From Abditibacteriaceae bacterium (GTDB lineage: Bacteria; Armatimonadota; Abditibacteriia; Abditibacteriales; Abditibacteriaceae): a stretch of DNA of 37,790 nucleotides. A program made the position numbers and the translations under genes. Location of the stretch: positions 1-37,790 of the forward strand of contig JANPJS010000318.1 in NCBI GenBank assembly GCA_031425655.1, read 5' to 3'. Numbering within the stretch: position 1 is the stretch's first letter; every line of letters begins with the position of its first letter. Below the pieces are notes generated by a model that saw nothing but the letters and a program-made list of their open reading frames with translations, did not search any database and was not told where the DNA came from. Below, in pieces: positions 544 through 14,850 of this stretch.

Positions 544-1179
544 TTACGGAGTCACTTTACCGGGAGATCGTGGTGGCGAGGCACGACCTGCCTTTTCCAA
601 CGAGGTGCCGAAGGGAATCAGGATGGGCGTGGAATGCACGGAGTCCATGCGACTGATGCGCCATGCCTCGCCAACACGGCGCAGAAAAAACGGCTGCACT
701 TCATTACGGTCTGCATAAATGAACTCAACCATGAGGCGCGTCTCATTCGGCGCGGAGTCCTGCTTCGTGCGCAGGTTAACGGCGACTCCTTTAACCGGAG
801 CCATCAAGCGTTTCAAATAGCCGATTAAATACGCATCGCCTTTTTCGGCGCGCGTGCGCTCCAGTTGGCCGCGCAATGGGTCGGTAAATTGTTCCAGATA
901 GGCGGTTAAGTTCCCGGCACGCGCGGCTGCGGTCGCCGCTTCTATGGAACTTATCATGGTGTTATCCAACGACGCCGGTGTTGCTGCGGTCACGCCACGC
1001 GTAGCCGCCGTCGGGGTGCGTGGCTGGCGTGGCCGGCGTGCCGAATAAAGTGCGCTGACCAGTGCCGCGCCGAGCATCGCCAGCCCAAGCCATAACTGTG
1101 GCGGCAATTTCGGCAAACGCTTAATTGGCCGGTGCGACTTGGGCTGTGGGCGTGGGACTGACGGCGGTTGGCGTGGCAT
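544..1179 (-). CDS. Membrane-anchored hypothetical protein (one TM helix, Pro/Thr/Ala linker, small alpha/beta domain, possibly NTF2-like)
   Basis: ORF 544..1233, likely start ATG 1179; TM segment LWLGLAMLGAALVSALY; overlaps the 3' end of the upstream hflK-like gene. Confidence 0.7.
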   Translation of the reverse strand: MPRQPPSVPRPQPKSHRPIKRLPKLPPQLWLGLAMLGAALVSALYSARRPRQPRTPTAATRGVTAATPASLDNTMISSIEAATAAARAGNLTAYLEQFTDPLRGQLERTRAEKGDAYLIGYLKRLMAPVKGVAVNLRTKQDSAPNETRLMVEFIYADRNEVQPFFLRRVGEAWRISRMDSVHSTPILIPFGTSLEKAGRASPPRSPGKVTP

Positions 1180-2134
1180 TAACGATTCCTGAAGCATCCG
1201 AAGTGGACGCGGGAGTGGGCGTGGCAATAGCATTCGCGGGGCGCGGCAGCAAGTTTAAATCTACCGGGTTGCGCTTTCCGGCACGATCCACGGAAATGAC
1301 TTTCAGGCGTGGCAGGATGTGCTCCATAGCCTCGAAATAAAGCCGGGTGTTGCTGACGCCGGGCGCGCGGCGATATGCGTTATAGGCCTGGCTAAAGCGC
1401 GCCGCATCGCCTTGGGCTTTGAGTATGGCGGCATCGCGGTAACCGATGGCTTCTTCGCGCAGTCTGGCGGCTTCTCCCTGCGCGGCGGGTAAAGTCGCGT
1501 TGGCGTAGGAACGCGCTTCCTGAATAAGGCGGTCGCGGTCTGCGCGTGCGCTGGCGACTTCGCGGAATGCGTCGGCGACCGCAAGCGGCGGGTTCACGCC
1601 GGCGATGTTGACGGCGGTAATTGTAAGGCCTAAGCCGTAGGCGTCGGACGCTTGCTGGGTGCGGAGGCGCACTGCATCCTGTGCTTCGAGCTTACCGATA
1701 GTCAACAAAGCATCCACCGGGCGCTCTGCCACCGTAGTCGCTACCGCCGCTTCCGCCGCTTGCTGCAAGACCCGTGTCGTGTCGGCTGCGGAGAATAAAT
1801 AGGCGCGCGGGTTGTCAATTGTGAACTGCACCAGCAATTCCACGTTCACCAGATTTTGATCGCCGGTGAAGCACTCGCCGTTCGCTGCCCCGCCGCGATT
1901 CAAGGTTTGATCGGCGGCTTCAAAGCCTATGTTGAGCCGCTTTTGTTCACGCACTTTGAGGCGATTGACTCGATCTACGCCCCACGGCAGCCCAATGTGC
2001 AAGCCCGGAGGCACTCGGTCGGCGACGACTTTGCCGAAGCGCCGCACCACCGCCTGTTCGTCCACTTGAACGATGTAGACCCCGGTTAAAAGCCACAGTC
2101 CGCCTAAGAGTCCCAGAATACGTTGTTTGGTCAT
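1121..2134 (-). CDS. hflK: HflK-like SPFH (band 7) membrane protein
   Basis: N-terminal TM, VVRRFGK...PGLH, FTGDQNLVNVE, VNPPLAVADAFREV, AQGDAARF, RLYFEAMEHIL motifs. Confidence 0.85.
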   Translation of the reverse strand: MTKQRILGLLGGLWLLTGVYIVQVDEQAVVRRFGKVVADRVPPGLHIGLPWGVDRVNRLKVREQKRLNIGFEAADQTLNRGGAANGECFTGDQNLVNVELLVQFTIDNPRAYLFSAADTTRVLQQAAEAAVATTVAERPVDALLTIGKLEAQDAVRLRTQQASDAYGLGLTITAVNIAGVNPPLAVADAFREVASARADRDRLIQEARSYANATLPAAQGEAARLREEAIGYRDAAILKAQGDAARFSQAYNAYRRAPGVSNTRLYFEAMEHILPRLKVISVDRAGKRNPVDLNLLPRPANAIATPTPASTSDASGIVNATPTAVSPTPTAQVAPAN

Positions 2135-2170: not shown

Positions 2171-2345
2171 ACCCGACTTGCTACCCATCACATCCGAAGT
2201 AGTGGAGTCGCATTCAGCCCCCACCCAACCTCCCCCGGAGAGGGAGGAGTAGATTCTTCAAGGCCCTTTGCTTTGAAAAAACGTAACTCCTCTCCCCTCC
2301 GGGGGAGGTTGGGTGGGGGCAAAGACGATAAGTAGCAACTTGGGT
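2171..2345. mobile_element. MITE with IS982-like ACCC termini and 7-bp target duplication TATTTTA, carrying a family-A palindromic pair
   Basis: TIRs ACCCGACTTGCTAC (2171-2184) and GTAGCAACTTGGGT (2332-2345); TATTTTA at 2164-2170 and 2346-2352; internal inverted arms 2217-2249 and 2287-2320. Confidence 0.8.
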
Positions 2346-2349
2346 TATT

Positions 2350-3246
2350 TTACGGTTTCCCATTGATGCGCCCGCTGGTCAGCAATCGCATCAAATCGGA
2401 GTCGGACGAGAGAATCACGGTTGTTTTTTCGTTCATGAATTTTTTGTAGGCATCCAGTGTGCGGGTCATTTTGTAAAAATTCGGATCGCGGTTATACGCG
2501 TCGGCATAGATGCGCATGGCCTGAGCATCGCCCCGTCCCTTGATCTTTTCAGCTTGCTCGTAACCGCGCGCTAAAATTTGGGTTTTCTCGCGGTCGGCGG
2601 CGGCGTGAATGCGCGTGGCCTGTTCCGCACCTTGAGCGCGATATTGGCGGGCGATGCGGTCGCGCTCGGAGCGCATCCGGGCAAAGACGCTTTCTTTGTT
2701 TTCTTCGGGCAGGTTGATGCGTCGCAGGCGCACGTCCTCCACTTCAATGCCGTATTGATCGCGCGCCGCTGCGGCACAACGCTGTTTCACGGAATCCATG
2801 ATCGCGCTGACTCGCACTTGCTTTGGGTTTGTCGCTACCAACTGGTCTAAATCGTGATTGCCCAGCGCGATGGAAATTTCCGATTTCACGATGTCTTGCA
2901 GGCGGCTCTCGGCTCCGGCGCGATCCACGACCGCCTGCAAAAACTTCTGCGGATCGTCCAGCCGCCAGATGACAAAGGAATCCACCACCAGATTTTTCCG
3001 GTCGCGCGTCAACAGCTCCGATGGCGAAGGAATGAACGATTGGCGCCGCACATCAAGCCGGATGCGGCTTTGCCACGGCCATTTGAGATGCAACCCGGCC
3101 TCGCGCGTTATCGCCACGGGCCGTCCGAATTGTGTCACGACGGCGGCTTCGCTTTCGTCCACGACGTAGAACGTTGAAACGATTATCAGCACTGCGACAA
3201 GAGCGGCAAACGCCTTGATTCGTGATTTCATGGTGTGCAGATTCAT
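2350..3246 (-). CDS. hflC: HflC-like SPFH membrane protein
   Basis: VVTQFGRP, LTRDRKNLVVD, DVRLRRINLP, VFARMRSERDRIA, GDAQAMRIYADAYNRDPNFY..TRTLDAY motifs; alternative start 3231. Confidence 0.9.
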   Translation of the reverse strand: MNLHTMKSRIKAFAALVAVLIIVSTFYVVDESEAAVVTQFGRPVAITREAGLHLKWPWQSRIRLDVRRQSFIPSPSELLTRDRKNLVVDSFVIWRLDDPQKFLQAVVDRAGAESRLQDIVKSEISIALGNHDLDQLVATNPKQVRVSAIMDSVKQRCAAAARDQYGIEVEDVRLRRINLPEENKESVFARMRSERDRIARQYRAQGAEQATRIHAAADREKTQILARGYEQAEKIKGRGDAQAMRIYADAYNRDPNFYKMTRTLDAYKKFMNEKTTVILSSDSDLMRLLTSGRINGKP

Positions 3247-3262
3247 TCGGCTTAAGTAATCG

Positions 3263-3405
3263 GGAGAACGATAAACAGGAAGACGGAAAGGGCGGGAAGG
3301 TGGGAAGAAGAAAACGAAGTCGTTTTCTTGCCTTTGTCTGCGAACATTTCCATTACTCCACAGATTGCTTTTCCGTCTTCCCGCTCTTTCCGTTTATCGT
3401 TCTCC
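3263..3405. repeat. Intergenic inverted repeat built from degenerate purine-rich short units
   Basis: GGAGAACGATAAAC (3263-3276) pairs with GTTTATCGTTCTCC (3392-3405); inner GGAAGACGGAAAG-like units mirrored by TTTCCGTCTTCC. Confidence 0.7.
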
Positions 3406-3430
3406 TTGTTAATTAGCTCAGTTGAGCCAT

Positions 3431-6400
3431 TTATTCTTCCTCCTCCGATGGTTGTTGTGGACGCGGCACAGCGGGCAAACCCGGCAGTTCCGGCAATGCG
3501 CCCTCGGAGAGCCACATTTGCCGCCGTCCTCCGGCGCGCGGATCCATAACGAATTTGTTCGGCCCGGCTAACGCTTGTTCCACCGTTTCAAGATACATCC
3601 GATTGGCGTTGACCTGTGGCCCGGAACGGTAGCCGGTGAGCATCTGTGTGAAGCGGCTGGCATCGCCGGACGAGCGGTGGGCGCGCTCGAAAGCGTAGCC
3701 TCCGGCCAGCGCCAAGTTTTGCGCGGCCTCGCCGTGTGCGAGCGGAATTGTCTCGTTGCGATAAGCTTGCGCTTGATTGATCAGTGAGGATTTTTCTTCT
3801 TCGGCGCTCGATACGTTCCGATAAGCCGGAACGACTTCCTGCGGCGGATGCACGTCTTGCAAGCGCGCCGAAAGCACTTCTATGCCGCTTCCATAGGAAT
3901 CGCAAGTGCTTTGCGTGGAGCGCGCAATGGCCGCTTCGAGCGCGCCGCGGCCCGTTGTCAGCAAGGCCTGCATGGATGTTTGGCCCGCTGCACGTCGCAA
4001 AGCGGCTTCGCCGGCTTGGTGCAGCACGCTTTCTGCGTCGCTCAGGCTAAATAAATACTGAGATGAGTTGCTGATGCGATATTGCAGCGTCAAATTGACT
4101 TCCACGAAATACTCATCGCCGGTCAGCAGCAGCGACTCGTCGGCCACGCGCTCCAAGTTGCCGCGATGCTCTGTGCTCCATTCCGACACCCCGACCGGCG
4201 GGGATGCAACAGTGCTTTTCGTCGCGAAGTTGACATTTTTTCGGGTGCGAAAACCAATTTCGGCGCGGCGCACGCCGGCCACGTTGACCTTCGTAACTTT
4301 GTCAATCGGCCACGGCGCGCGATAATGCAGGCCGGGGCCGATGTTCGCGGCGATTAATCTGCCGAATCGCTGCGCCACACCGACCTCGCCTTGCGCGATG
4401 CTATAAAACCCCGACATCAGCCAGCCCACGAAGACAACGCCGACAAGGGCGAGACAGATTCGTTGTCGGTTTTGCCGCGCCGTTTCGCGCCATTGGCGCC
4501 CATGTTCGGTGATGCGTTGCAACGGCAAACGCGCCGTCCAACGTGCGATTTTCTGCGGCAGCCAAGTGGTGCGCGGTGCCGCAACGGTATCGCCCGGTCG
4601 CCAGGGTTTGCCGTAAAGCAAGCGCAGCGAACTGGTGACGACTAAAAGCGAGGCGATTTGGTGCTCGACAGCGGCCAGAATCGGCGACAGGTCGCGGCTG
4701 CCGTCGCCGAAATAAGGATGGGCCGCTTGCAGGCGGAAGCCAAGCCAGGCTAAAGCTCCGCTCGCGCTCAAAATTACGCTCAGGCTATTGAGGCCAATGG
4801 CGAACCACAGAATGTTGCGACGAATGGTGGACAGGGCACGGCGGCTAATGACAATCGTTTCGGGCAGGCGTGCCAAATCGTCGGCGACGAAGACGACGCC
4901 TGCGGTTTCCACAGCGATGTCGGCTCCGCCATGACCCATCGCCACGCCGACATCGGCGGCGGCGAGCGCCGGCGCGTCGTTGATGCCGTCGCCGATCATG
5001 GCAACGCGATAACCCGCGGCCTGCAAAGCGCGCAGACGCGCCATTTTATCGGCGGGAAAAAGATGCGCGGACACTTCGGTAATCCCGATTTGACCTGCCA
5101 CCGCTTGCGCGGCTTTGGCGCTATCGCCGGTCAACATCAAAATGCGTTCGATGCCCAGCGCTTTCAGCGACGACACCACGCTCGCCGCTTCGGGCCGCAC
5201 GCGGTCAGTCACGGCAAGCAGGCCGATTATCTCCATTTTGCCAATGGGCAAAGTCGCGGCGGCGACAAATATGACAGTGTTGCCCTTTGCTTCAAGCGCC
5301 TCGGCGCGTTGCGATAGGTCGGGCGGCAGCGCGACGGCTTTGTCATGCAAAAGTTGGCGGTTGCCCGCTAAAAGCAGTTGCCCTGCCTGCGTCGCGGTCA
5401 TGCCCAAGCCCGGCTGATAAGTGGCGTCGTCAAGCGGCGGCAGCGTGCCGGTGTCGCCGTAAGCTTGCCGCACGGCGGCGCTGAGGGGATGAGCCGAGCC
5501 TTGCTCGGCTGTGGCCGCGAGGCGCAGCACTTCTTCCTGCGTGCGGCCTGCGGCGGCCACGATTTCGACGACTTCAGGACGGCCTTGCGTCAGCGTGCCG
5601 GTCTTATCGAAAATGACACAGTTGACCCGCGCGAGGGCTTCGAGAGGAGCGCCGCCGCGCATGAGGATTCCACGCCGCGCGCAGCGTCCCAACGCCGCCG
5701 CCATGCCGGTCGGCGTGGCTAAAATCAAGGCGCAGGGACACGCGATAATCAGCGTGGCCGCCATGCGCGTGAGAGCGACGGAAAGCGCCGCTCCTAAAAT
5801 CCAATAATAAACGGCAAAAGTCAGCGCACCTATGATAAGCACGATGGGCACGAAGTAACCGGCCCAACGATCCGCGAGGCGCTCGACGGGTGCTTTTCGC
5901 GCCTGCGCTTCGGCGACGAGGCGAATGATCTGCGCCAGCGTAGTGGCCTCGCCGACGGCCCTCGCTTCGACTTCGAGCAGCCCCATCGTATTGATGGTGC
6001 CGGTGAAAACTTCGTCGCCGGGTTGTTTGAGTAACGGCAACGACTCGCCGGTGAGCGCGGACTGATCCACAGCCGATTGCCCGGTTTGCACCACGCCATC
6101 TACGGGAATACGCTCGCCGGGGCGGATGATGACGCTATCGCCCACCACGATTTGCTCAATCGGCAGCGTGATTTCATGGCCATCGCGCCGCACGGTCGCT
6201 GTGTCGGGCGCGAGGCCGAGAAGAGCGGCAAGTGCGCCGCGCGTTTTTTCAACGACGTAACCTTCCAGCGCCGTGCCGATCAGCATGATGAGCACGACTT
6301 CGGCGGCAGCCGCGAATTGGCCGATGGCTAACGCGGCGAAAGCGGCAATGGTTACGGCAAGGTCGCCGCCCATTTTGCCTCTGGAAAGACGCGACAGGCT

Positions 6401-6643
6401 GTCCCAGAAAATGCCGTAGCCACCCGCTAATGTGACCAGCAGCGCGGCATCGAGTCCGAAGATTTTGGTGACCACGCCGCTCACGTAGAGCAGCAGCATC
6501 CCCGTGACCACGCCGATCATAGCCACGTCGCTCCAGGCTACGCCGCCTTCGGCTTCGTCATCTTCGTCGTGAATTTCGTCAATGTCGGGGTCTGACATCG
6601 GTTCTGTGTGTGGTTCCGGGTAGGGGCGGGAGCCGATGTCCAT
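3431..6643 (-). CDS. Heavy-metal P1B-type ATPase fused to a C-terminal HflK-like SPFH domain
   Basis: TGES, CPC (5732-5740), DKTGT, HP, TGD and GDGINDAP motifs, then an extra TM and HflK motifs (QRFGR..GPGLHY, LLTGDEYFVEV, DVHPPQEVVPAY, GDASRF, RMYLETVEQAL) in one uninterrupted 1070-aa frame. Confidence 0.92.
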   Translation of the reverse strand: MDIGSRPYPEPHTEPMSDPDIDEIHDEDDEAEGGVAWSDVAMIGVVTGMLLLYVSGVVTKIFGLDAALLVTLAGGYGIFWDSLSRLSRGKMGGDLAVTIAAFAALAIGQFAAAAEVVLIMLIGTALEGYVVEKTRGALAALLGLAPDTATVRRDGHEITLPIEQIVVGDSVIIRPGERIPVDGVVQTGQSAVDQSALTGESLPLLKQPGDEVFTGTINTMGLLEVEARAVGEATTLAQIIRLVAEAQARKAPVERLADRWAGYFVPIVLIIGALTFAVYYWILGAALSVALTRMAATLIIACPCALILATPTGMAAALGRCARRGILMRGGAPLEALARVNCVIFDKTGTLTQGRPEVVEIVAAAGRTQEEVLRLAATAEQGSAHPLSAAVRQAYGDTGTLPPLDDATYQPGLGMTATQAGQLLLAGNRQLLHDKAVALPPDLSQRAEALEAKGNTVIFVAAATLPIGKMEIIGLLAVTDRVRPEAASVVSSLKALGIERILMLTGDSAKAAQAVAGQIGITEVSAHLFPADKMARLRALQAAGYRVAMIGDGINDAPALAAADVGVAMGHGGADIAVETAGVVFVADDLARLPETIVISRRALSTIRRNILWFAIGLNSLSVILSASGALAWLGFRLQAAHPYFGDGSRDLSPILAAVEHQIASLLVVTSSLRLLYGKPWRPGDTVAAPRTTWLPQKIARWTARLPLQRITEHGRQWRETARQNRQRICLALVGVVFVGWLMSGFYSIAQGEVGVAQRFGRLIAANIGPGLHYRAPWPIDKVTKVNVAGVRRAEIGFRTRKNVNFATKSTVASPPVGVSEWSTEHRGNLERVADESLLLTGDEYFVEVNLTLQYRISNSSQYLFSLSDAESVLHQAGEAALRRAAGQTSMQALLTTGRGALEAAIARSTQSTCDSYGSGIEVLSARLQDVHPPQEVVPAYRNVSSAEEEKSSLINQAQAYRNETIPLAHGEAAQNLALAGGYAFERAHRSSGDASRFTQMLTGYRSGPQVNANRMYLETVEQALAGPNKFVMDPRAGGRRQMWLSEGALPELPGLPAVPRPQQPSEEEE

Positions 6644-6709: not shown

Positions 6710-9598
6710 CTACGCACCATGAATCCACATCGGTGAAGACCAGGCCAGTTGACCATCGGCTTGCTCGATGCGGACATAATAATAGCTCATGCCCTGACAG
6801 CCTTCGACATCCGTCCATGACAAGTCCACTTGGGTGGTGTTCGGCATGGCAGTGTAGACAATTTTGTTGTTTTTAACGACGATAACGCGCGCTATCGGGC
6901 CGGTGCCGGTCACGCTAATCTGCAAAGACGGCAGCGTTTGGATGGTGAACTCATCGCCCATTATCTTGTTGCCGCAGCGCACGTCCAGCAGGATGTTGTC
7001 CGTGGCCGCGTAACAGTGACGCCGGCGCAAGGCATCCACGACGCCTTGAGGCGTCGGTGTCGAGGCGTAGGCCATGGTGTAAGAAATATGCGTCGAGCGG
7101 TGATCGGACGAGGATTCAAAGCCGAGCCGGTAACCCTTTGCCAGCGCGTTCCACACGTAGCCCGCCGGGTTATAACCGCCAATGGCATCGGCGGCAGTGG
7201 CGCTGCGCGGCGCGCCCTCGTATTCGTAGCTTTGACGGTCGCCTTGATAAATTTCCACGATTGGCTCGACTTCACGGTCGTTATCGCGCCAGTCTGTGCC
7301 GCCGACATACTGTCCAGAGGTATGGGCGGCGCAGATGCCGTCGAAGGCGCGCAGATATTTATAAAGCATCTTGGTGTCGTTGGGCGAAACTCCGTTGGCC
7401 TGATTGCCTTTGAGGCGTGGTAAGGGCCGGATGCCGCGTTCCGGGAAGATTATGTTGCGATGGCCGTCGGGAAAACTCACGCTGCGTTCGTAGGAAAAGA
7501 CCGGCGCGAACTGGCTTGGCACAGTAAAAGCGTCGGTGTGCTTTTGCACCAGCCACCAGGTGTATTCGCGGTCTCCTCCCGATGAGCCGGGAGCTGAGCC
7601 GCTATTGTGGTCGCCGTTGCCGATCCAGTCTAAAGTTGCGGCATCGAGGCCATAGCGCCACATATCAATCAGGCTGCCCTCGCTTTTGCCGTCGCCGGAG
7701 ATTTCCGTGTGACGATGAAACTCGCCACGGACAATCTGATAAACGTCGGGGCCGGCTCTAGCGCGGTAACTCCGCAAACGGCTCACATCGTTACGTTCAG
7801 CCAGAGTTTTGGCGTCCACATCGTGCATCGTTGCGGGGTCGGCAACCAATGCGGGAGCGACGGCGGGGCCAGACCCCGCCATCCCGGTAATCGGCGCGAT
7901 GTAGATTTGATTGCGCCACGGCGTGCTGTAAGTTTGGTTGCGCCCATCGCTGGTATGCACCAGATAAAGCGCGCCGCCCGGCCCGTTGGCGAATGCGGGG
8001 CGGGCGTCTAATGCGTTGTCGGAATTGGGCACCGTGACCACAGGCGCCCAGGAGCTGCCTTCATAGAACGTAACGACCGAGTGCCACGATGTGGAGACAG
8101 TTTCCTGCACATCGGAAATCGGACGGCGGCAGGTGAGAAACACCCGGCCTTTGTCGTCGGTGCCCAGGCGCGGAAACGCCGTTTGGGTGCCCGTGTTGAG
8201 AGTTGCTAAAGTCCCTGCGGTTTTTAAACGCTGCCCGTCGGCATAACAACGCACATTAATGGTGTGGCCCGAATAAAGCGGAATGCCGACAGCGGGGTCT
8301 CTATACAAGCGTCCATAATCCTTGCCCCACAGCGGCCCGGCTTCTTCCCAGGCGATCCACACCCGATTGGCCGCATCGCACACAACCGAAGCTCTGGCCT
8401 CAAATTTTGGTGAGTCGCTGACGTTGATGGCCGGGCCAAATTCTGCGCCGTCCAACCGGCGCAGCATGACATCGTAATCGCCCTTATCGTAGGTGTCCCA
8501 GACAGCCCAGACGCTGCCGTCGTTGCCGCACGCCAGTTGCGGGTCCCAATCGTTGGCGGAACTGGTGCTGATCGGCGTCGCGCCGTTCCAGTTTTCGGTG
8601 CCGCGCGCGACTGAACTTATCAGAATATCGGACGTGCCGTTGGCGAAGCTCTGCCAGGCCAGCCAGATGTTGCCGGAGGCATCGCGCGCCAGCGCGACGT
8701 GTAAGTCGGGGGAGGCGTCCTGCGTAATCTGAATGGGCGGGGAAAGCGCGCCGTTATTATAGCGGCGCGCATAAACGTCCCATTGGCCGCCAACCTTCTG
8801 CGACCACGCGACCCAGACCTCTCCATCTAAGCCTGTGGCCAACGCGGGACGGTAAACATCCTGTCCCGCCGGCGTGAGATCGGCCATATGCGACCACTGT
8901 CCCGCGCCGCCCTGAGCCGTCAGTCGCGCCAGACGAATCTGGTCGCCGTTGCCTTGCGGTCGCAAAAAGTCGAACGATTGCGGCTCCGTCAACATTGGAC
9001 GTAAAAAAGGCAAATTCGACTGGCCGTAGGTATAAGAAACGTAAGCTGTCCACAGTGTGCCGGTCGTGTCGGCGGCGGCAGTGGGAAAGTCGTCTTCCGT
9101 GTTGCCGGCAGGCAGGGTGAATTCCGAGAAAACACGCTCGGCGGAAGCCGCGCCGTTCAGCAGGAGAACAGGCTGTCCGAAGACCAGAGCGGCGGGCGCG
9201 AAACTGAAATTGCCTTGCGCGGTAGTAATCTGAATTTGCGTTTGAGAACTGGCCTTGAGCGTTATCAGAACGCCGTTGGTGTTCATCTTACGGGTGACGG
9301 GACTGATGCGCGTCGAGGCAACCCAACTCGTCGGACTGATCCATTTGTCGGTTGAGCGGAAATTCCAGCCCTGTGAACCGATGAAGGTGCCGTTAACGAT
9401 GCTGAACGAGCCGTCCCAGTTTGTGGGCACGGTATCTTTTTTCCCGAAAAGCACGCGCACCGTTATAGCCTGCGGCTCGACGCGCGTGCCGGCGTCCTGT
9501 CCCACCACCTGAGCGCCGCTGCGCTGCACCCACCACGCGCCGCTGGCCAACATGAAGCCGAGAGCCAAAAAAAGCGAGGCGAAACGAATTTTTTTCAT
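6710..9598 (-). CDS. Secreted protein: propeller-like repeats plus C-terminal PHP-type (DUF3604/CehA-McbA-like) metallohydrolase domain
   Basis: Signal peptide MKKIRFASLFLALGFMLASGA; repeated D-x-x-P-x-L-A..G-x-V-W-x-A-W blades; PHP-like motifs GEFHRHTE, GDH, YE, GHRN, AHT, VEIYQ, SSDH. Confidence 0.8.
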   Translation of the reverse strand: MKKIRFASLFLALGFMLASGAWWVQRSGAQVVGQDAGTRVEPQAITVRVLFGKKDTVPTNWDGSFSIVNGTFIGSQGWNFRSTDKWISPTSWVASTRISPVTRKMNTNGVLITLKASSQTQIQITTAQGNFSFAPAALVFGQPVLLLNGAASAERVFSEFTLPAGNTEDDFPTAAADTTGTLWTAYVSYTYGQSNLPFLRPMLTEPQSFDFLRPQGNGDQIRLARLTAQGGAGQWSHMADLTPAGQDVYRPALATGLDGEVWVAWSQKVGGQWDVYARRYNNGALSPPIQITQDASPDLHVALARDASGNIWLAWQSFANGTSDILISSVARGTENWNGATPISTSSANDWDPQLACGNDGSVWAVWDTYDKGDYDVMLRRLDGAEFGPAINVSDSPKFEARASVVCDAANRVWIAWEEAGPLWGKDYGRLYRDPAVGIPLYSGHTINVRCYADGQRLKTAGTLATLNTGTQTAFPRLGTDDKGRVFLTCRRPISDVQETVSTSWHSVVTFYEGSSWAPVVTVPNSDNALDARPAFANGPGGALYLVHTSDGRNQTYSTPWRNQIYIAPITGMAGSGPAVAPALVADPATMHDVDAKTLAERNDVSRLRSYRARAGPDVYQIVRGEFHRHTEISGDGKSEGSLIDMWRYGLDAATLDWIGNGDHNSGSAPGSSGGDREYTWWLVQKHTDAFTVPSQFAPVFSYERSVSFPDGHRNIIFPERGIRPLPRLKGNQANGVSPNDTKMLYKYLRAFDGICAAHTSGQYVGGTDWRDNDREVEPIVEIYQGDRQSYEYEGAPRSATAADAIGGYNPAGYVWNALAKGYRLGFESSSDHRSTHISYTMAYASTPTPQGVVDALRRRHCYAATDNILLDVRCGNKIMGDEFTIQTLPSLQISVTGTGPIARVIVVKNNKIVYTAMPNTTQVDLSWTDVEGCQGMSYYYVRIEQADGQLAWSSPMWIHGA

Positions 9599-9780: not shown

Positions 9781-12700
9781 GTGTTAAAAGCCACCTTTTC
9801 TGCCGGCAACGTATTGTGGGCCGTCCTCATCGGATGGGCGCTGTGGCTCACGGGCGGCGCGGTGAGCGCCGCCACACTCACAGTAGGCAATCCATCGGAT
9901 AGCGGCGTCGGATCGCTGCGTCAGGCCATTGCCGATGCGATGGAGGGCGACACTATCAATGTCCCGTCCGTCGGCACGATTATTCTGAGCAGTGGCGCGC
10001 TCGTCATTGATAAATCGCTAAGCATCGTGGGCACGGGCGCGGTGCCATTGACCATCAGCGGCAATAACGCCACGCGCATTTTTCAGGTTACGTCCGGCAC
10101 GGTCGTGCTGGCCGGTTTTACCCTGACGAGCGGTCTTGCCGAGGCGGGCAGTGCGGGAGGCGCGATTCGCAATTCCGCGACGCTGACCCTCAACAATTGC
10201 ACTGTTACCAACAGCAGAGCCGAAACAGGCGGCGGCATCTGTAATGACGCCGATGCTCTGCTGACTCTGAATAACAGTTTTGTAGATGGCAATGCGGCCA
10301 TCGGGGCGAACGGGGCAAACGGCGGCGGCATCGTCAACTCCGGCATTCTCACGGTCAATTCCAGCACGTTTTACCGCAATCACACCGTTAGCGGCGAGGG
10401 CGCCGGCATTTATCAGGCGCAGGGCGGCCTTCTCGTCAACAACAGCACGTTTTACGGCAACAGCGCCAGTTTTGCCTGTGCGGGACGGGGCGGCGCCCTC
10501 GCCGTCGAGGGCGGCACTGCCGAAGTAAACAACTCCACGATTGCCGGCAATTCGGCCAGCGCCTCGTTTGGCGGCGGCGGCATTTTTCAGGGTGCCGGCA
10601 CCCTGAGCCTCAACAACACGATCTTAGCCGGAAATAGCGCGCCCGATGGCGGCGCGGATTGCAGCGGCACCATCACGACGGGCGATTTTAACTTAGTGCA
10701 GGACACTTCGGGCTGCACGCTGGCCGGCACTCACAACGTGATAGGCCAAGACCCGCTGCTCGGACAAGTGCAAAACAACGGCGGCCTCACGTTCACGATG
10801 GCGCTTCTTTCCGGCAGCCCGGCTCTTGACTCTGGAAAAAGCGCCGGCACGCCGCCCACAGCGACCGACCAACGCGGCGCACCACGGCCTGTCAATTCGC
10901 CTGCCGTCATTTCCGGCGACGGCAGCGACATCGGTGCGTTCGAGGCCAATGATCCCGCGCAAACCGGCTTGTTACTGGTGAACACTCTCTCCGACCATGA
11001 CGATGGCGTCTGCGGCGCTACCGATTGCACCCTGCGCGAGGCGATCCATACGGCCAATAACCGCGCCGGCGACGACGCCATCGGTTTCATTGCGGGATTG
11101 GCCGGCACTATTGGTCTGGAGCAGGCGTTGCCCGCTTTGATGTCCAACATCGTCCTGACCGGCCCCGCCGCGCCGGGAATCATCGTGGAGCGCAGTCAAG
11201 TTCCCAATACGCCCGATTTTTCCATTTTCGTCGTCTCCGAGAGCGCAATAGTGACGATTTCCGCGTTGACTCTGCAACACGGGCGCAGCGAAGCCGGCGG
11301 CGGCATTGTCGTCAATGCCGCCGCCGGCTTGACGCTCAGCGGATGCACGCTTATAGACAACGAGGCAACGGCAGGCGATGGCGGCGGTGTTCTCAATCTC
11401 GGCGCGTTGGCACTTGTCAACTGCACCCTTGCGCGCAACATCGCTCCCAACGGCAAAGGCGGCGGCGTTGCCTCGAACGGCACACTCAGCCTCGCGCACT
11501 GCACTCTGACCGGGAATAGCGCCGGCTCCGGAGGTGGCCTCGACATCGCTCCGGCCACATCGGCCACCATCAACGGCAGCCTGTTCGCAGGCAACAGCGC
11601 GCCGTTGGCTGCGGATTGTCAGGGCGCCTTCACGACGGGCGACTATAACCTTGTTCAAGACCCTTCCGGTTGCGTGCTGTCGGGAGCCAATAATATCACC
11701 GGCCAAGACCCGCTGCTTGGCCCGTTGCAAGACAACGGCGGCCCAACCCCGACCTGCGCGTTACAGTCCGGTAGCCCGGCGCTGGATACCGGCGGCCAGG
11801 CCGGCGGCCTAAGCGCGCCCACCGACCAACGCGGCTTCGTGCGGCCCGCCGATAATCCATCGCTGCCCAACCCGCCCGGCGGCGATGGCAGCGATATTGG
11901 CGCGCTCGAAGCCGATGTGACGCAGGGCAACGGCGTTATCGTTGTGAACACCACCGATGACCTTGACGATGGCGCTTGCACTGTGCGGCATTGCTCACTG
12001 CGCGAAGCCATTAATGCCGCGAACGCTGCTCCCAATGCCGCGCTGCCGGACGAGATTCGCTTCGCTATTCCCGGCACTGGGCCGCGCGTCATCGCGCCGC
12101 TCACGGCGTTTCCGACCATTAGCGAAGCGGTGATTCTGGACGGCACGACCCAAGCGGGTTATGCGGGTCTGCCCATTATCGAAATCAGAGGAACTTCCGC
12201 CGGCGCGGGCGTTGGCGGGCTGACTATCAACGCCGCAGGCTGCCGGGTGAAAGGCTTATCCATCACGCGCTTCGCGGCCAATGGCATCACGCTTTTAGCG
12301 GGCCAAAACGTCGTTGAAAACTGCTGGATCGGTATTTTCGCCGGCTCCACTTCCGGCGGCGCGGCGGGCAACGCCGGCAGCGGCATTTTCATTGACAACG
12401 TGCCGAGCAACACCATCGGCAGCGTAACCGCCGGCCTCGGCAACGTCATTTCCGCCAATAATGGCGATGGCATCCTGTTGCGCGGCAGCAGTGCCGGCAA
12501 TAACCTGGTGATCGGCAATTCTGTTGGCTTGGCTGTCAATGGCACGCTGGCGCTGGGCAACGGCGGCAACGGCATCGGGCTGGATGGAGCGACGCAGAAC
12601 ACTATCGGCGGTCAAACCGGCGGCGAGGGCAATGTTATCGTGGGAAATCGCGGCAACGGCATCTTTTTGCAAGGCGGCGCAACCGGCAATGTTATAAAAG

Positions 12701-14850
12701 GCAACAAAATCGGTGTTGCCCCGAACGGTGCGGCGCTGGGTAATATTGACGACGGCGTGCTCTTGGAAGGCGCATCGGCCAATATTATCGGCGATGCGGC
12801 GAGCGGCGCGGGCAACGTCATTGCCGGCAACGGGAACCACGGCGTTCAGATTACGAATGGCGACGGCAATACGATTCGCGGCAACGCGATTTACTCCAAT
12901 ACGCTGCTCGGTATAGAACTCGGCACCGATGGCGTCACGATCAACGACGCGCTTGACGCCGATGCCGGCCCGAATCAAGCGCAAAATTACCCGGTTATTA
13001 CGGACGTGACGACAACAAACGACCAGACGACGATTGGCGGCACTTTCAACAGCCAGCCAAACGCGACGTATATTCTGGATTTCTATCAAGGGCTGGTTCC
13101 CGATCCCAGCGGCAACGGCGAAGGCGACGTGTTCTTGCAAGATGCCGGTGGAGCCGGTTCGCCGGTTGTCACCACTGACGCGAATGGCTTCGCGGCTTTT
13201 AGCTTTACCATTGCCGGAAATCTCGGCGATCAATACGTCAGTGCGACGGCTACTGATGCCGCCGGCAACACCAGCGAATTCTCCGGGGTTATAAATTCTC
13301 CATCCGTCACAGTCACCGATGTCACGGTCACCGAGGGCAATGCCGGCGTCGTAAGGGCTGATTTTGTCGTGAGTTTGTCTGTCGCCGGTAGTCGAACAAT
13401 ATCGGTGAACTACGCCTCCGTCAATGGCACCGCCTTAGCGCCGGGCGATTATACCGCGACCACAGGCACCTTAAGCTTCGCGCCGGGCCAGACCAGCAAA
13501 ACAGTCAGCGTCTCGGTGAACGGTAATTACGTGCCGGAAAGCGATGAAACTCTGTTCCTCAACTTGAGCGATGCGGTCAATGCAACGCTGGGCGACGCGC
13601 AAGGTATAGGCACTATCGCCAACGACGATTTCGACACGACGCCTCCCAGCGTGAACTTCACGACTTCGGCGACTACGCCGGCGGGCACCACGCCACTGAG
13701 CAACGCCACGCTTTACAACGCGATTCCAACGATTACCGGCGTCGCGGCGGATGCGGGCAGCGGAGTATCGAAAGTCGAACTGCGTTTGTATCGTGCGTCC
13801 GCCGTGGCGGGGGTTTACGAAGAGTGGAACGGCACTGTTTGGACTGCGAGCGCGCGGTTGAGCACGGTTTTGAGTCCGGCGGCGGGCGGTGCCAATGTGA
13901 GCTTTAGCAAGAGCGGCGGTTGGCCCAGCGGCAGCAATCTGTCGAGCGGCACTTACTATCTGGTGGCTTACGCCTATGACCGGGCCGGCAAGTATGGCTT
14001 TTTCGCCACCATTTTCAAAATAGTGAGTGACACGACGCCTCCCAGCGTGAGTTTCACGACTTCAGCGACGACTCCTGTCGGCACCACACCACTGAAGAAT
14101 GCCACGCTTTACGAGGCGATTCCAACGATTACCGGCGTGGCGGCGGATGCGGGCAGCGGAGTATCGAAAGTCGAACTGCGTTTATATCGCGCGTCCGCCG
14201 TGGCGGGGGTTTACGAAGAGTGGAACGGCACGGTTTGGACTGCGAGCGCGCGGTTGAGCACGGTTCTGAGTCCGACGGCGGGCGGTGCCAATGTGAGCTT
14301 TAGCAAGAGCGGCGGTTGGCCCAGCGGCAGCAATCTATCGAGCGGCACTTACTATCTGGTGGCTTACGCCTATGATCGGGTCGGTAAATCAGCTGCCGTG
14401 AATACGTTTTTCAAAGTGGGCAATGACACCACAGCGCCCAGTGTAAGTTTCACGACTCCGACCACCAATCCGTCCGGCACGACGCCGCTTGAGAACAGCA
14501 CGGTTGGCGCTATCCCCGACATTACCGGCGTGGCAGCGGATGGCGGGAGCGGCATCGCGCGCGTGGATTTACGTTTGTATCGCGCGACAAGCACAGCCGG
14601 GGTTTACGAGGAATGGAACGGCACGACTTGGACAGCTTCGGCGCGATTAAGCACAACGATGAGTCCGGCAAGCGGCGGCGCCAGTGTAAGTTGGAATCGC
14701 AGCGGCGTCTGGCCGACGGGCAGCAACCTGGCGAACGGCACTTACTATCTCGTCGCTTACGCTTATGATCGCGCCGGTAAATCAGCCTACATCGCTACTA
14801 TTTTCAAGGTCAGTTCTTCGAATAGTGCCACCCGTAGCGCTCCCGGTTAA
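9781..14850 (+). CDS. Large secreted/surface protein: choice-of-anchor-Q and CSLREA repeats, right-handed beta-helix, Calx-beta domain, three Ig-like repeats
   Basis: GSLRQAI, CTLREAI and CSLREAI; LGPLQDNGGPTPT..SPALD..DQRG..DIGA; NQAQNYPVI..GNTSEFS; Calx-beta (VTEGNAG..DYTATTGTLSFAPGQTSKT..ESDETL); DTTPPSV repeats. Confidence 0.85.
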   Translation: MLKATFSAGNVLWAVLIGWALWLTGGAVSAATLTVGNPSDSGVGSLRQAIADAMEGDTINVPSVGTIILSSGALVIDKSLSIVGTGAVPLTISGNNATRIFQVTSGTVVLAGFTLTSGLAEAGSAGGAIRNSATLTLNNCTVTNSRAETGGGICNDADALLTLNNSFVDGNAAIGANGANGGGIVNSGILTVNSSTFYRNHTVSGEGAGIYQAQGGLLVNNSTFYGNSASFACAGRGGALAVEGGTAEVNNSTIAGNSASASFGGGGIFQGAGTLSLNNTILAGNSAPDGGADCSGTITTGDFNLVQDTSGCTLAGTHNVIGQDPLLGQVQNNGGLTFTMALLSGSPALDSGKSAGTPPTATDQRGAPRPVNSPAVISGDGSDIGAFEANDPAQTGLLLVNTLSDHDDGVCGATDCTLREAIHTANNRAGDDAIGFIAGLAGTIGLEQALPALMSNIVLTGPAAPGIIVERSQVPNTPDFSIFVVSESAIVTISALTLQHGRSEAGGGIVVNAAAGLTLSGCTLIDNEATAGDGGGVLNLGALALVNCTLARNIAPNGKGGGVASNGTLSLAHCTLTGNSAGSGGGLDIAPATSATINGSLFAGNSAPLAADCQGAFTTGDYNLVQDPSGCVLSGANNITGQDPLLGPLQDNGGPTPTCALQSGSPALDTGGQAGGLSAPTDQRGFVRPADNPSLPNPPGGDGSDIGALEADVTQGNGVIVVNTTDDLDDGACTVRHCSLREAINAANAAPNAALPDEIRFAIPGTGPRVIAPLTAFPTISEAVILDGTTQAGYAGLPIIEIRGTSAGAGVGGLTINAAGCRVKGLSITRFAANGITLLAGQNVVENCWIGIFAGSTSGGAAGNAGSGIFIDNVPSNTIGSVTAGLGNVISANNGDGILLRGSSAGNNLVIGNSVGLAVNGTLALGNGGNGIGLDGATQNTIGGQTGGEGNVIVGNRGNGIFLQGGATGNVIKGNKIGVAPNGAALGNIDDGVLLEGASANIIGDAASGAGNVIAGNGNHGVQITNGDGNTIRGNAIYSNTLLGIELGTDGVTINDALDADAGPNQAQNYPVITDVTTTNDQTTIGGTFNSQPNATYILDFYQGLVPDPSGNGEGDVFLQDAGGAGSPVVTTDANGFAAFSFTIAGNLGDQYVSATATDAAGNTSEFSGVINSPSVTVTDVTVTEGNAGVVRADFVVSLSVAGSRTISVNYASVNGTALAPGDYTATTGTLSFAPGQTSKTVSVSVNGNYVPESDETLFLNLSDAVNATLGDAQGIGTIANDDFDTTPPSVNFTTSATTPAGTTPLSNATLYNAIPTITGVAADAGSGVSKVELRLYRASAVAGVYEEWNGTVWTASARLSTVLSPAAGGANVSFSKSGGWPSGSNLSSGTYYLVAYAYDRAGKYGFFATIFKIVSDTTPPSVSFTTSATTPVGTTPLKNATLYEAIPTITGVAADAGSGVSKVELRLYRASAVAGVYEEWNGTVWTASARLSTVLSPTAGGANVSFSKSGGWPSGSNLSSGTYYLVAYAYDRVGKSAAVNTFFKVGNDTTAPSVSFTTPTTNPSGTTPLENSTVGAIPDITGVAADGGSGIARVDLRLYRATSTAGVYEEWNGTTWTASARLSTTMSPASGGASVSWNRSGVWPTGSNLANGTYYLVAYAYDRAGKSAYIATIFKVSSSNSATRSAPG
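13633..14811 (+). repeat. Three tandem 396-bp (132-aa) intragenic Ig-like domain repeats
   Basis: Units start at 13633, 14029 and 14425; units 1 and 2 are near-identical in DNA, unit 3 is diverged. Confidence 0.9.

Follow-up and report, generated by a model that had tools for sequence, protein, structure and literature searches.

Can a metal-transporting P-type ATPase and an SPFH scaffold protein be one polypeptide, and what would such a protein do? The question is raised by a locus on contig JANPJS010000318.1 of an Abditibacteriaceae bacterium (assembly GCA_031425655.1), whose 37,790 nucleotides are referred to as the window. A single open frame of 1070 codons on the minus strand (3431–6643) encodes a P1B-type ATPase, a ninth membrane helix and an HflK domain. 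The fusion is real and conserved, is assembled from known parts, and shows a genomic tie to a secreted PHP metallohydrolase that is a new finding of this analysis. The parts of the fusion protein are:

4616–6643, minus strand: P1B-type ATPase part, residues 1–676 (from motifs, Pfam/NCBIfam and fold model)
4469–4615, minus strand: basic linker, predicted cytoplasmic, residues 677–725; poorly conserved, open in related strains
4409–4468, minus strand: ninth membrane helix, the HflK anchor, residues 726–745 (from alignment and fold model)
3431–4408, minus strand: HflK1, with SPFH1, an insert carrying W822 and H826, SPFH2, D-V-H932-P, a coiled coil, and a C-terminal strand and tail

Pfam places E1-E2_ATPase (144–324), Hydrolase (341–564) and Band_7 (748–960) in this order, and the same protein exceeds two NCBIfam cut-offs: 564 bits versus 346 for the heavy-metal ATPase family TIGR01525, and 206 versus 159 for the HflK family TIGR01933. 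The ATPase motifs are intact (TGE 198–200, CPC 302–304, DKTGT 346–350, H385, GDGxND 551–556), and the catalytic motifs do not vary among 119 aligned full-length fusions. A structure predicted with AlphaFold (mean pLDDT 79.4, pTM 0.62) contains eight ATPase membrane helices, a ninth at 726–743, and the SPFH and coiled-coil parts; its best Foldseek match is the copper pump 7r0g (TM 0.81 on the target).

A preliminary description, made from the sequence, had proposed this fusion of a P1B-type ATPase to a full HflK-like SPFH domain and had named coverage across 4400–4700 and an architecture search as checks. Both bear it out. Contigs cross the domain junction without a stop: one from the likely source run, which may be the window's own source (X1), covers 2295–4975 with zero differences, and related-strain contigs, one of them from another study, cross it in frame at 4168–4669 (X2) and 3925–4964 (X3). 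The related-strain contigs show one compensating +1/−1 pair; of the 23 scored among the differences listed, with two sites within this pair set aside, 15 are silent, eight change a residue and none gives a stop. As contigs from two studies bridge the junction, an assembly or sequencing error there is ruled out.

Among the best 120 of 7830 database matches, 119, the query included, contain all three Pfam domains in the same order, the exception being a partial protein; ranking by whole-length score favours fusions in this set. Source names include Abditibacteriaceae, Armatimonadota and Acidobacteriota, and the architecture is kept at about 40% identity across at least three phyla, which refutes the idea that the homologs are always split genes. 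The preliminary description knew of no characterised P-type ATPase with this architecture; likewise, the full-text literature searched, with supplements and most subscription papers outside its scope, describes no P-type ATPase–SPFH fusion.

Two homologous loci depart from the common form. The fusion of L015 (7973–11081) is frameshifted in the assembly, and two opposite-strand peptidase-like frames lie between it and hflC. The planctomycete fusion of L270 (8065–11322) is divergent: M4 reads CPCP, M6 has HE, and hflC and hflK2 sit on a different contig.

The pump half

With DKTGT, TGE, an HP-type His, GDGxND, Cys-Pro-X in M4 and eight membrane helices, the fused pump is predicted to be a P1B-type metal-transporting ATPase. 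Its N-terminal tail is short and acidic, and CxxC is absent from the first 60 residues of all 119 fusions. The putative membrane site consists of C302-P-C304, N619 in M5 and H661-Q662 in M6, each present in 119/119 fusions, and S665 (109/119), giving the M6 pattern H661-Q662-x-x-S665.

The P1B-1 pump CopA has YN in M5, MxxS in M6 and a CxxC domain; the P1B-2 pump ZntA has Lys in M5 and DG in M6, and P1B-4 pumps have SPC and HEGT. These patterns are also visible in reference loci of this analysis. An assignment to CopA was rejected, as no Tyr precedes N619 in the five commonest residue pairs, M6 has HQ, CxxC occurs in 0/119, and the fusions fall outside the CopA clade. Neither the site motifs nor the tree position match ZntA or P1B-4. 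Database labels such as ‘Cu+-exporting ATPase’ were therefore not adopted.

The site is nearest to that quoted for Mycobacterium tuberculosis CtpC and to a Firmicutes-rich HN group which has the same Asn–His spacing of 20. Like the fusion, CtpC has CPC in M4, Asn in M5 and His in M6 and is a scaffolded pump, with PacL1 (PMC13460109, PMC13764973). Set against the quoted CtpC motif alone, CPC with N-X18-H-N-X-(S/T), the fusions have N-X20-H-Q-x-x-S, that is H-Q for H-N and a spacing of 20 (41–42 in 9/119) for 18. The scaffolds differ as well: PacL1 is described as forming foci independently of flotillin, and the scaffold of the fusion is a covalently attached SPFH domain, predicted to be periplasmic. 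The P1B-6 pump FezB of ferrosomes shares the M6 His, the lack of a classical N-terminal metal domain and a membrane-organising cluster (bioRxiv 2020.01.10.902569), but an identity with FezB was rejected too, the fusions having CPC and HQ in 119/119 in place of D[Y/F]SCA in M4 and HNxxT in M6. A term search of the accessible FezB text returned no SPFH term.

In a 75-row ATPase tree, from which CtpC is absent, the 17 fused pumps group in a single clade (support 97) without a supported sister group. Two collection scans behind this comparison were dominated by generic ATPases (five module loci among 159), and the remainder served as tree references. A 21-residue insert in the outer M5–M6 loop (about 4690–4760), near the presumed metal exit, is common to 9/119 fusions.

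The scaffold and its predicted topology

Two further SPFH genes follow the fusion gene:

2350–3246, minus strand: HflC, 298 aa (TIGR01932, 204 bits; cut-off 134)
1121–2134, minus strand: HflK2, a free HflK paralog of 337 aa with neither of the HflK1 His residues

HflK1 has the anchor helix, SPFH1 and SPFH2, the coiled coil, the TIGR01933 match and the hflC partner expected of an HflK. It aligns over its full length (E 3e-44) with HflK of the Escherichia coli HflK/HflC–FtsH cage (PDB 7vhp, 7wi3, 9cz1, 9cz2, 9paw), and HflC adjoins it. The 24-subunit periplasmic cage of E. coli (PMC13220708) serves as structural model for the present system. Unlike in E. coli, there are two HflK types, one of them pump-fused, and the module has no ftsH linkage. 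HflK1 carries a 39-residue insert (with W822 and H826) directly after the position of R141/E142, residues by which E. coli HflK contacts FtsH, and its residue 932 is His, against Arg in E. coli. Of the E. coli contacts R141, E142 and R185, both Arg equivalents are conserved in HflK1, the Glu is not.

These His residues distinguish HflK1. A His preceding Pro at 932 occurs in 30/32 HflK1 proteins, 0/32 HflK2 and 1/30 single HflK, and the W...H pair of the insert in 17/17 pump-fused, 5/6 split and 1/2 cation diffusion facilitator (CDF)-linked HflK1, but in 0/7 other HflK1 and 0/62 HflK2 and single HflK proteins. The preliminary description had suggested that the free HflK paralog could set the number of pumps per ring. 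HflK2 is conserved and differs from HflK1 systematically, which would be compatible with a mixed ring, but it is also found in loci whose pump has a gene of its own. In a quick SPFH tree, which left out 17 of the 30 single HflK proteins, pump-fused HflK1 forms one clade (95); since the deep branches are poorly supported, a single origin of all HflK1 types is unsupported.

The preliminary description had also placed the SPFH domain on the outer face, and the present data point the same way. The eight ATPase helices would leave the C-terminus in the cytoplasm, a basic linker follows (net charge 0 to +11, median +5, across the 119 fusions; low-confidence in the fold model), then the ninth helix, and HflK/C of E. 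coli lies in the periplasm (PMC13220708). The Lys/Arg asymmetry around helix 9 is weak (3.0 before versus 2.1 after). That this would be the side where metal exits is plausible, but a related Pseudomonas aeruginosa locus has been reported as an importer.

This locus, PA2439–PA2434 (PaFlo5–7 and hmtA; PMC4542158, PMC13086221), likewise combines three SPFH genes with a P1B ATPase. Loci of the same order in Paraburkholderia, Rhizobium, Klebsiella and Burkholderia have the HflK1 His motifs in common with the fusion. Unlike in the fusion, the pump of this split type is a separate gene behind the HflK1–HflC–HflK2 trio and has a different M5, and HflK1 carries another, unnamed membrane domain, for which profile comparison with CDF gave no match (probability 0.3). 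The order matches PA2439–PA2437 and hmtA as published; the link to PA2435 is by gene order and annotation only. Where the split-type pump is located on plasmids, this HflK1 is present too in 11/11 records carrying the pump. The trio occurs with other cargo on HflK1 as well: a CDF domain in L091 (weak in L220) and an ArsP_1 permease in L264, L267 and L268.

Some trios show further features. L220 (7455–13645), L221 and L222 have a degenerate CDF domain on HflK1, followed by a His-rich P1B-4-like pump (L220, L221) or metal ABC-like genes (L222); two genomes (G029, G056) carry a trio of this kind in addition to the fusion module. In L142 (1120–11902) and L276 (4833–12774) the split trio and pump precede ABC-2 transporter genes, and the L276 pump is without CPC.

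Enclosure of transport proteins by an SPFH oligomer is known from the stomatin dome around AQP1 and UT-B (PMC13041759), which, unlike the fusion, is eukaryotic, non-covalent and built around passive channels. How bacterial SPFH cages serve clients besides FtsH is still little understood. Knockouts of all nine P. aeruginosa SPFH genes had only slight phenotypes (PMC13086221); a term search of the accessible text of that study gave neither ‘ATPase’ nor ‘heavy metal’. As the client is covalently fixed to the SPFH domain here, stoichiometry, topology and function become directly testable.

A secreted PHP hydrolase and the possible role of the fusion

The module begins with a secreted PHP metallohydrolase gene, 66 bases from the fusion gene, and continues with pump::HflK1, HflC, HflK2 and a small anchored protein. 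From the preliminary description the fusion stands and the outer-face SPFH domain is probable; it had missed the metallohydrolase upstream and the small gene downstream, both of which track the fusion:

6710–9598, minus strand: secreted protein of 962 aa, with a signal or anchor at the N-terminus, repeats in the centre and a PHP metallohydrolase domain at the C-terminus
544–1233, minus strand: small protein with a membrane anchor, likely start near 1116–1077; its soluble domain belongs to no named family (weak DUF4878/DUF4864)

A second SPFH gene was found within the fetched region at 19/20 fusion loci from other genomes. Comparison of 24 loci placed the small gene at 13 of them and the gene for the secreted protein at 11. 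L262, L263 and L277 add modules that are complete or nearly so.

The C-terminal domain has the PHP fold, a barrel with His/Asp/Glu metal ligands (model pLDDT 90), and its best structural matches are the PHP phosphoesterases 3e38 and 2anu. A PDB sequence search gave nothing below E 0.11, and NF038032 matched with 51, below its cut-off of 80. The ten ligand-type residues (H628, H630, D663, H664, E704, H713, H759, E782, D832, H833) are invariant in 30/30 hydrolase homologs. An N-terminal hydrophobic stretch is present in 26/30, and a Tat consensus in none of the 30.

The distribution of hydrolase and fusion was compared in three phyla. Of 121 genomes sampled from the window's phylum, 17 carry the fusion; the small protein (by a profile drawing on seven of these carriers) is in the same 17, and a full hydrolase in those and in one more, G074. 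Among 151 genomes from the phylum of L020, fusion, small protein and hydrolase are confined to the same three; in the 151 of the phylum of L001, fusion frames of about 1000 aa and hydrolase matches below E 1e-100 occur in the same two. Without the three centre genomes, the hydrolase is present in 19/19 fusion carriers versus 1/401 non-carriers (420 genomes; G174, an unpublished genome of the second sample, counts in the denominator only, and the limit of E 1e-40 may have overlooked divergent planctomycete fusions). A control protein from the window is found in 61 of the 121 genomes. Carriers and non-carriers occur within single families (2/11 and 3/6 carriers in f1 and f15). The hydrolase copies are often several and unlinked (five loci in G213, up to nine PHP matches per genome), which argues against mere hitch-hiking.

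We propose a caged exporter dedicated to delivering metal to Sec-exported PHP hydrolases, a reading for which we see about an even chance. The ATPase would move a divalent transition metal, most likely Zn or Mn and possibly Fe, from the cytoplasm to the outer face. Fused HflK1, HflC and HflK2 would form an HflK/C-type periplasmic cage over the pump-bearing membrane patch, pumps being carried at some HflK positions of the ring (24 subunits in E. coli). The HflK1-specific His residues may hold the released ion, and the held metal would be passed to the co-inherited hydrolases, which are expected to require several metal ions each and to fold after export; the small anchored protein could be an adaptor. 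Metallation of a secreted enzyme, here proposed, is reported for CtpC with SodA, and CtpC and CtpA are precedents for such pumps in reviews (PMC13764973). How Sec-exported periplasmic enzymes are supplied with the right metal is poorly understood, and the tie to a hydrolase family gives a read-out. A wider version is tentative, and we rather doubt that it holds: the bacterial SPFH cage as an extracytoplasmic metallation chamber, in which cage-wall pumps would fill the enclosed periplasmic space, HflK1 His residues relay the metal and new PHP hydrolases be loaded, the cage being re-armed with CDF, ArsP or a separate P1B pump in other lineages including P. aeruginosa.

Several points weigh against metal delivery to the hydrolase. 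The fold model has low confidence at both HflK1 His sites (803–827, 933–942), and no metal site is seen. The carriers fall in about ten lineages and kin are not independent, so that the Fisher value for the tie is overstated; the E 1e-100 line was drawn after the results were seen, and few hydrolase candidates were scored per genome. G074, a genome 88% complete, has the hydrolase and no fusion was found in it; six further non-carriers have weaker matches (E 1e-43 to 1e-73), and nine have distant PHP relatives, by a profile drawn mostly from carriers. G125, the genome of the divergent planctomycete fusion L270, outside the samples, yielded neither a small protein nor, at E 1e-10, a hydrolase. 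The hydrolase is mostly missing from the CDF, ArsP and split versions, and was not found in 201 genomes of the phylum with P. aeruginosa-type split loci. The P. aeruginosa locus itself responds to zinc shortage and has been described as an uptake system. The co-occurrence itself would be compatible with any shared pathway, not with metallation alone.

The fusion of HflK1 to CDF and ArsP_1 transporters as well would suit a general detoxifying efflux platform, in which the cage clusters and stabilises exporters without a specific client, as PacL does for CtpC; in the PacL–Ctp effluxosomes P1B pumps are already known to work with a scaffold (PMC13460109, PMC13764973), and one locus, L092, lies amid copper genes and a ZntA-like pump. 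Such a platform would leave the hydrolase tie unexplained. With CxxC lacking at the N-terminus of every fusion, no recurrent metal-sensing regulator family among the 24 loci, and other efflux pumps in the genome (one CopA-like, one P1B-4-like), we consider it unlikely.

The transport direction might also be reversed, as claimed for HmtA (cited in PMC4542158): Zn or Cu that is scarce in the periplasm, and that the hydrolase perhaps sets free, would bind to the cage His residues and be imported by the ATPase. PA2434–PA2439, with hmtA and three HflK/C-like genes, is upregulated when znuA is mutated (5.6 to 14.4-fold; PMC4542158) and raised in Zn-depleted proteomes (PMC11761036), and Zur binds the PA2439 promoter, but hmtA mRNA was without zinc repression in the same study (PMC8531726). 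Split loci of this gene order share the W...H and xHP motifs of HflK1 (5/6), and L087, L268 and L222 are flanked by metal ABC genes. A joint clade of fused and split ATPases is tolerated (p-AU 0.35); in the best tree, however, they are apart, as separate supported clades (97, 99), and the M5 Asn is missing from the split pumps. A search with three probe motifs, a weak test because they are perhaps not those of this phylum, placed no Zur-like box above shuffles ahead of the 24 fusion-module starts; the sole start beating its shuffles was the ArsP locus L264 (12 versus 11), and scanning 36 upstream regions for Zur/Fur motifs and palindromes was uninformative. The genome already has two ZnuA genes. 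On balance we hold uptake to be decidedly improbable. The unusual importer claim for HmtA deserves to be revisited along with its SPFH trio.

Lastly, the triad could be the genome's HflK/C in control of FtsH, the fused pump feeding zinc to FtsH in the cage or being shielded from it. The module genes are the only ones above the HflK cut-off in the genome, which has one FtsH, and Arg equivalents of R141 and R185, two of the three E. coli FtsH-contact residues (PMC13220708), are present in 107/119 and 114/119 fusions; the window protein itself has His at the R185 position. The absence of an HflK match at E 1e-15 from 103/121 genomes of the phylum indicates that HflK is no housekeeping partner there, ftsH is located on another contig, and G213, G273 and others keep a separate single hflK beside the module, which makes this role very unlikely. 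An incidental fusion or artefact with halves working apart, for which the poorly conserved linker, of low confidence in the fold model, might be cited, is hardly credible given its retention across phyla, the single clade of each half and the junction bridged in two studies.

Further features of the locus

The small anchored protein, which may be NTF2-like, is confined to fusion-bearing genomes within the samples. A complex prediction with HflK1, HflC and HflK2 scored 0.13 against a mark of 0.32 and is no evidence either way. In one genus (g12; L216–L219, L272–L275), fusion and hflC stay together and hflK2, the small gene and hydrolases are on other contigs, all being kept.

Divergent from the module, at 9781–14850 of the window, lies a gene for a 1689-aa secreted beta-helix/Calx-beta protein with three C-terminal Ig-like repeats, which does not recur as a neighbour among the fusion-module loci compared. 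The gap between hflC and hflK2 (2164–2345) contains an inverted repeat with arms at 2217–2243 and 2294–2320. Because the 182 bases of this gap are absent from related-strain contigs (X2–X4), a small repeat has probably inserted here recently. An imperfect hairpin at 3253–3415, between fusion and hflC, is 16 bases shorter in a related strain and could lower downstream expression, shifting the subunit ratios.

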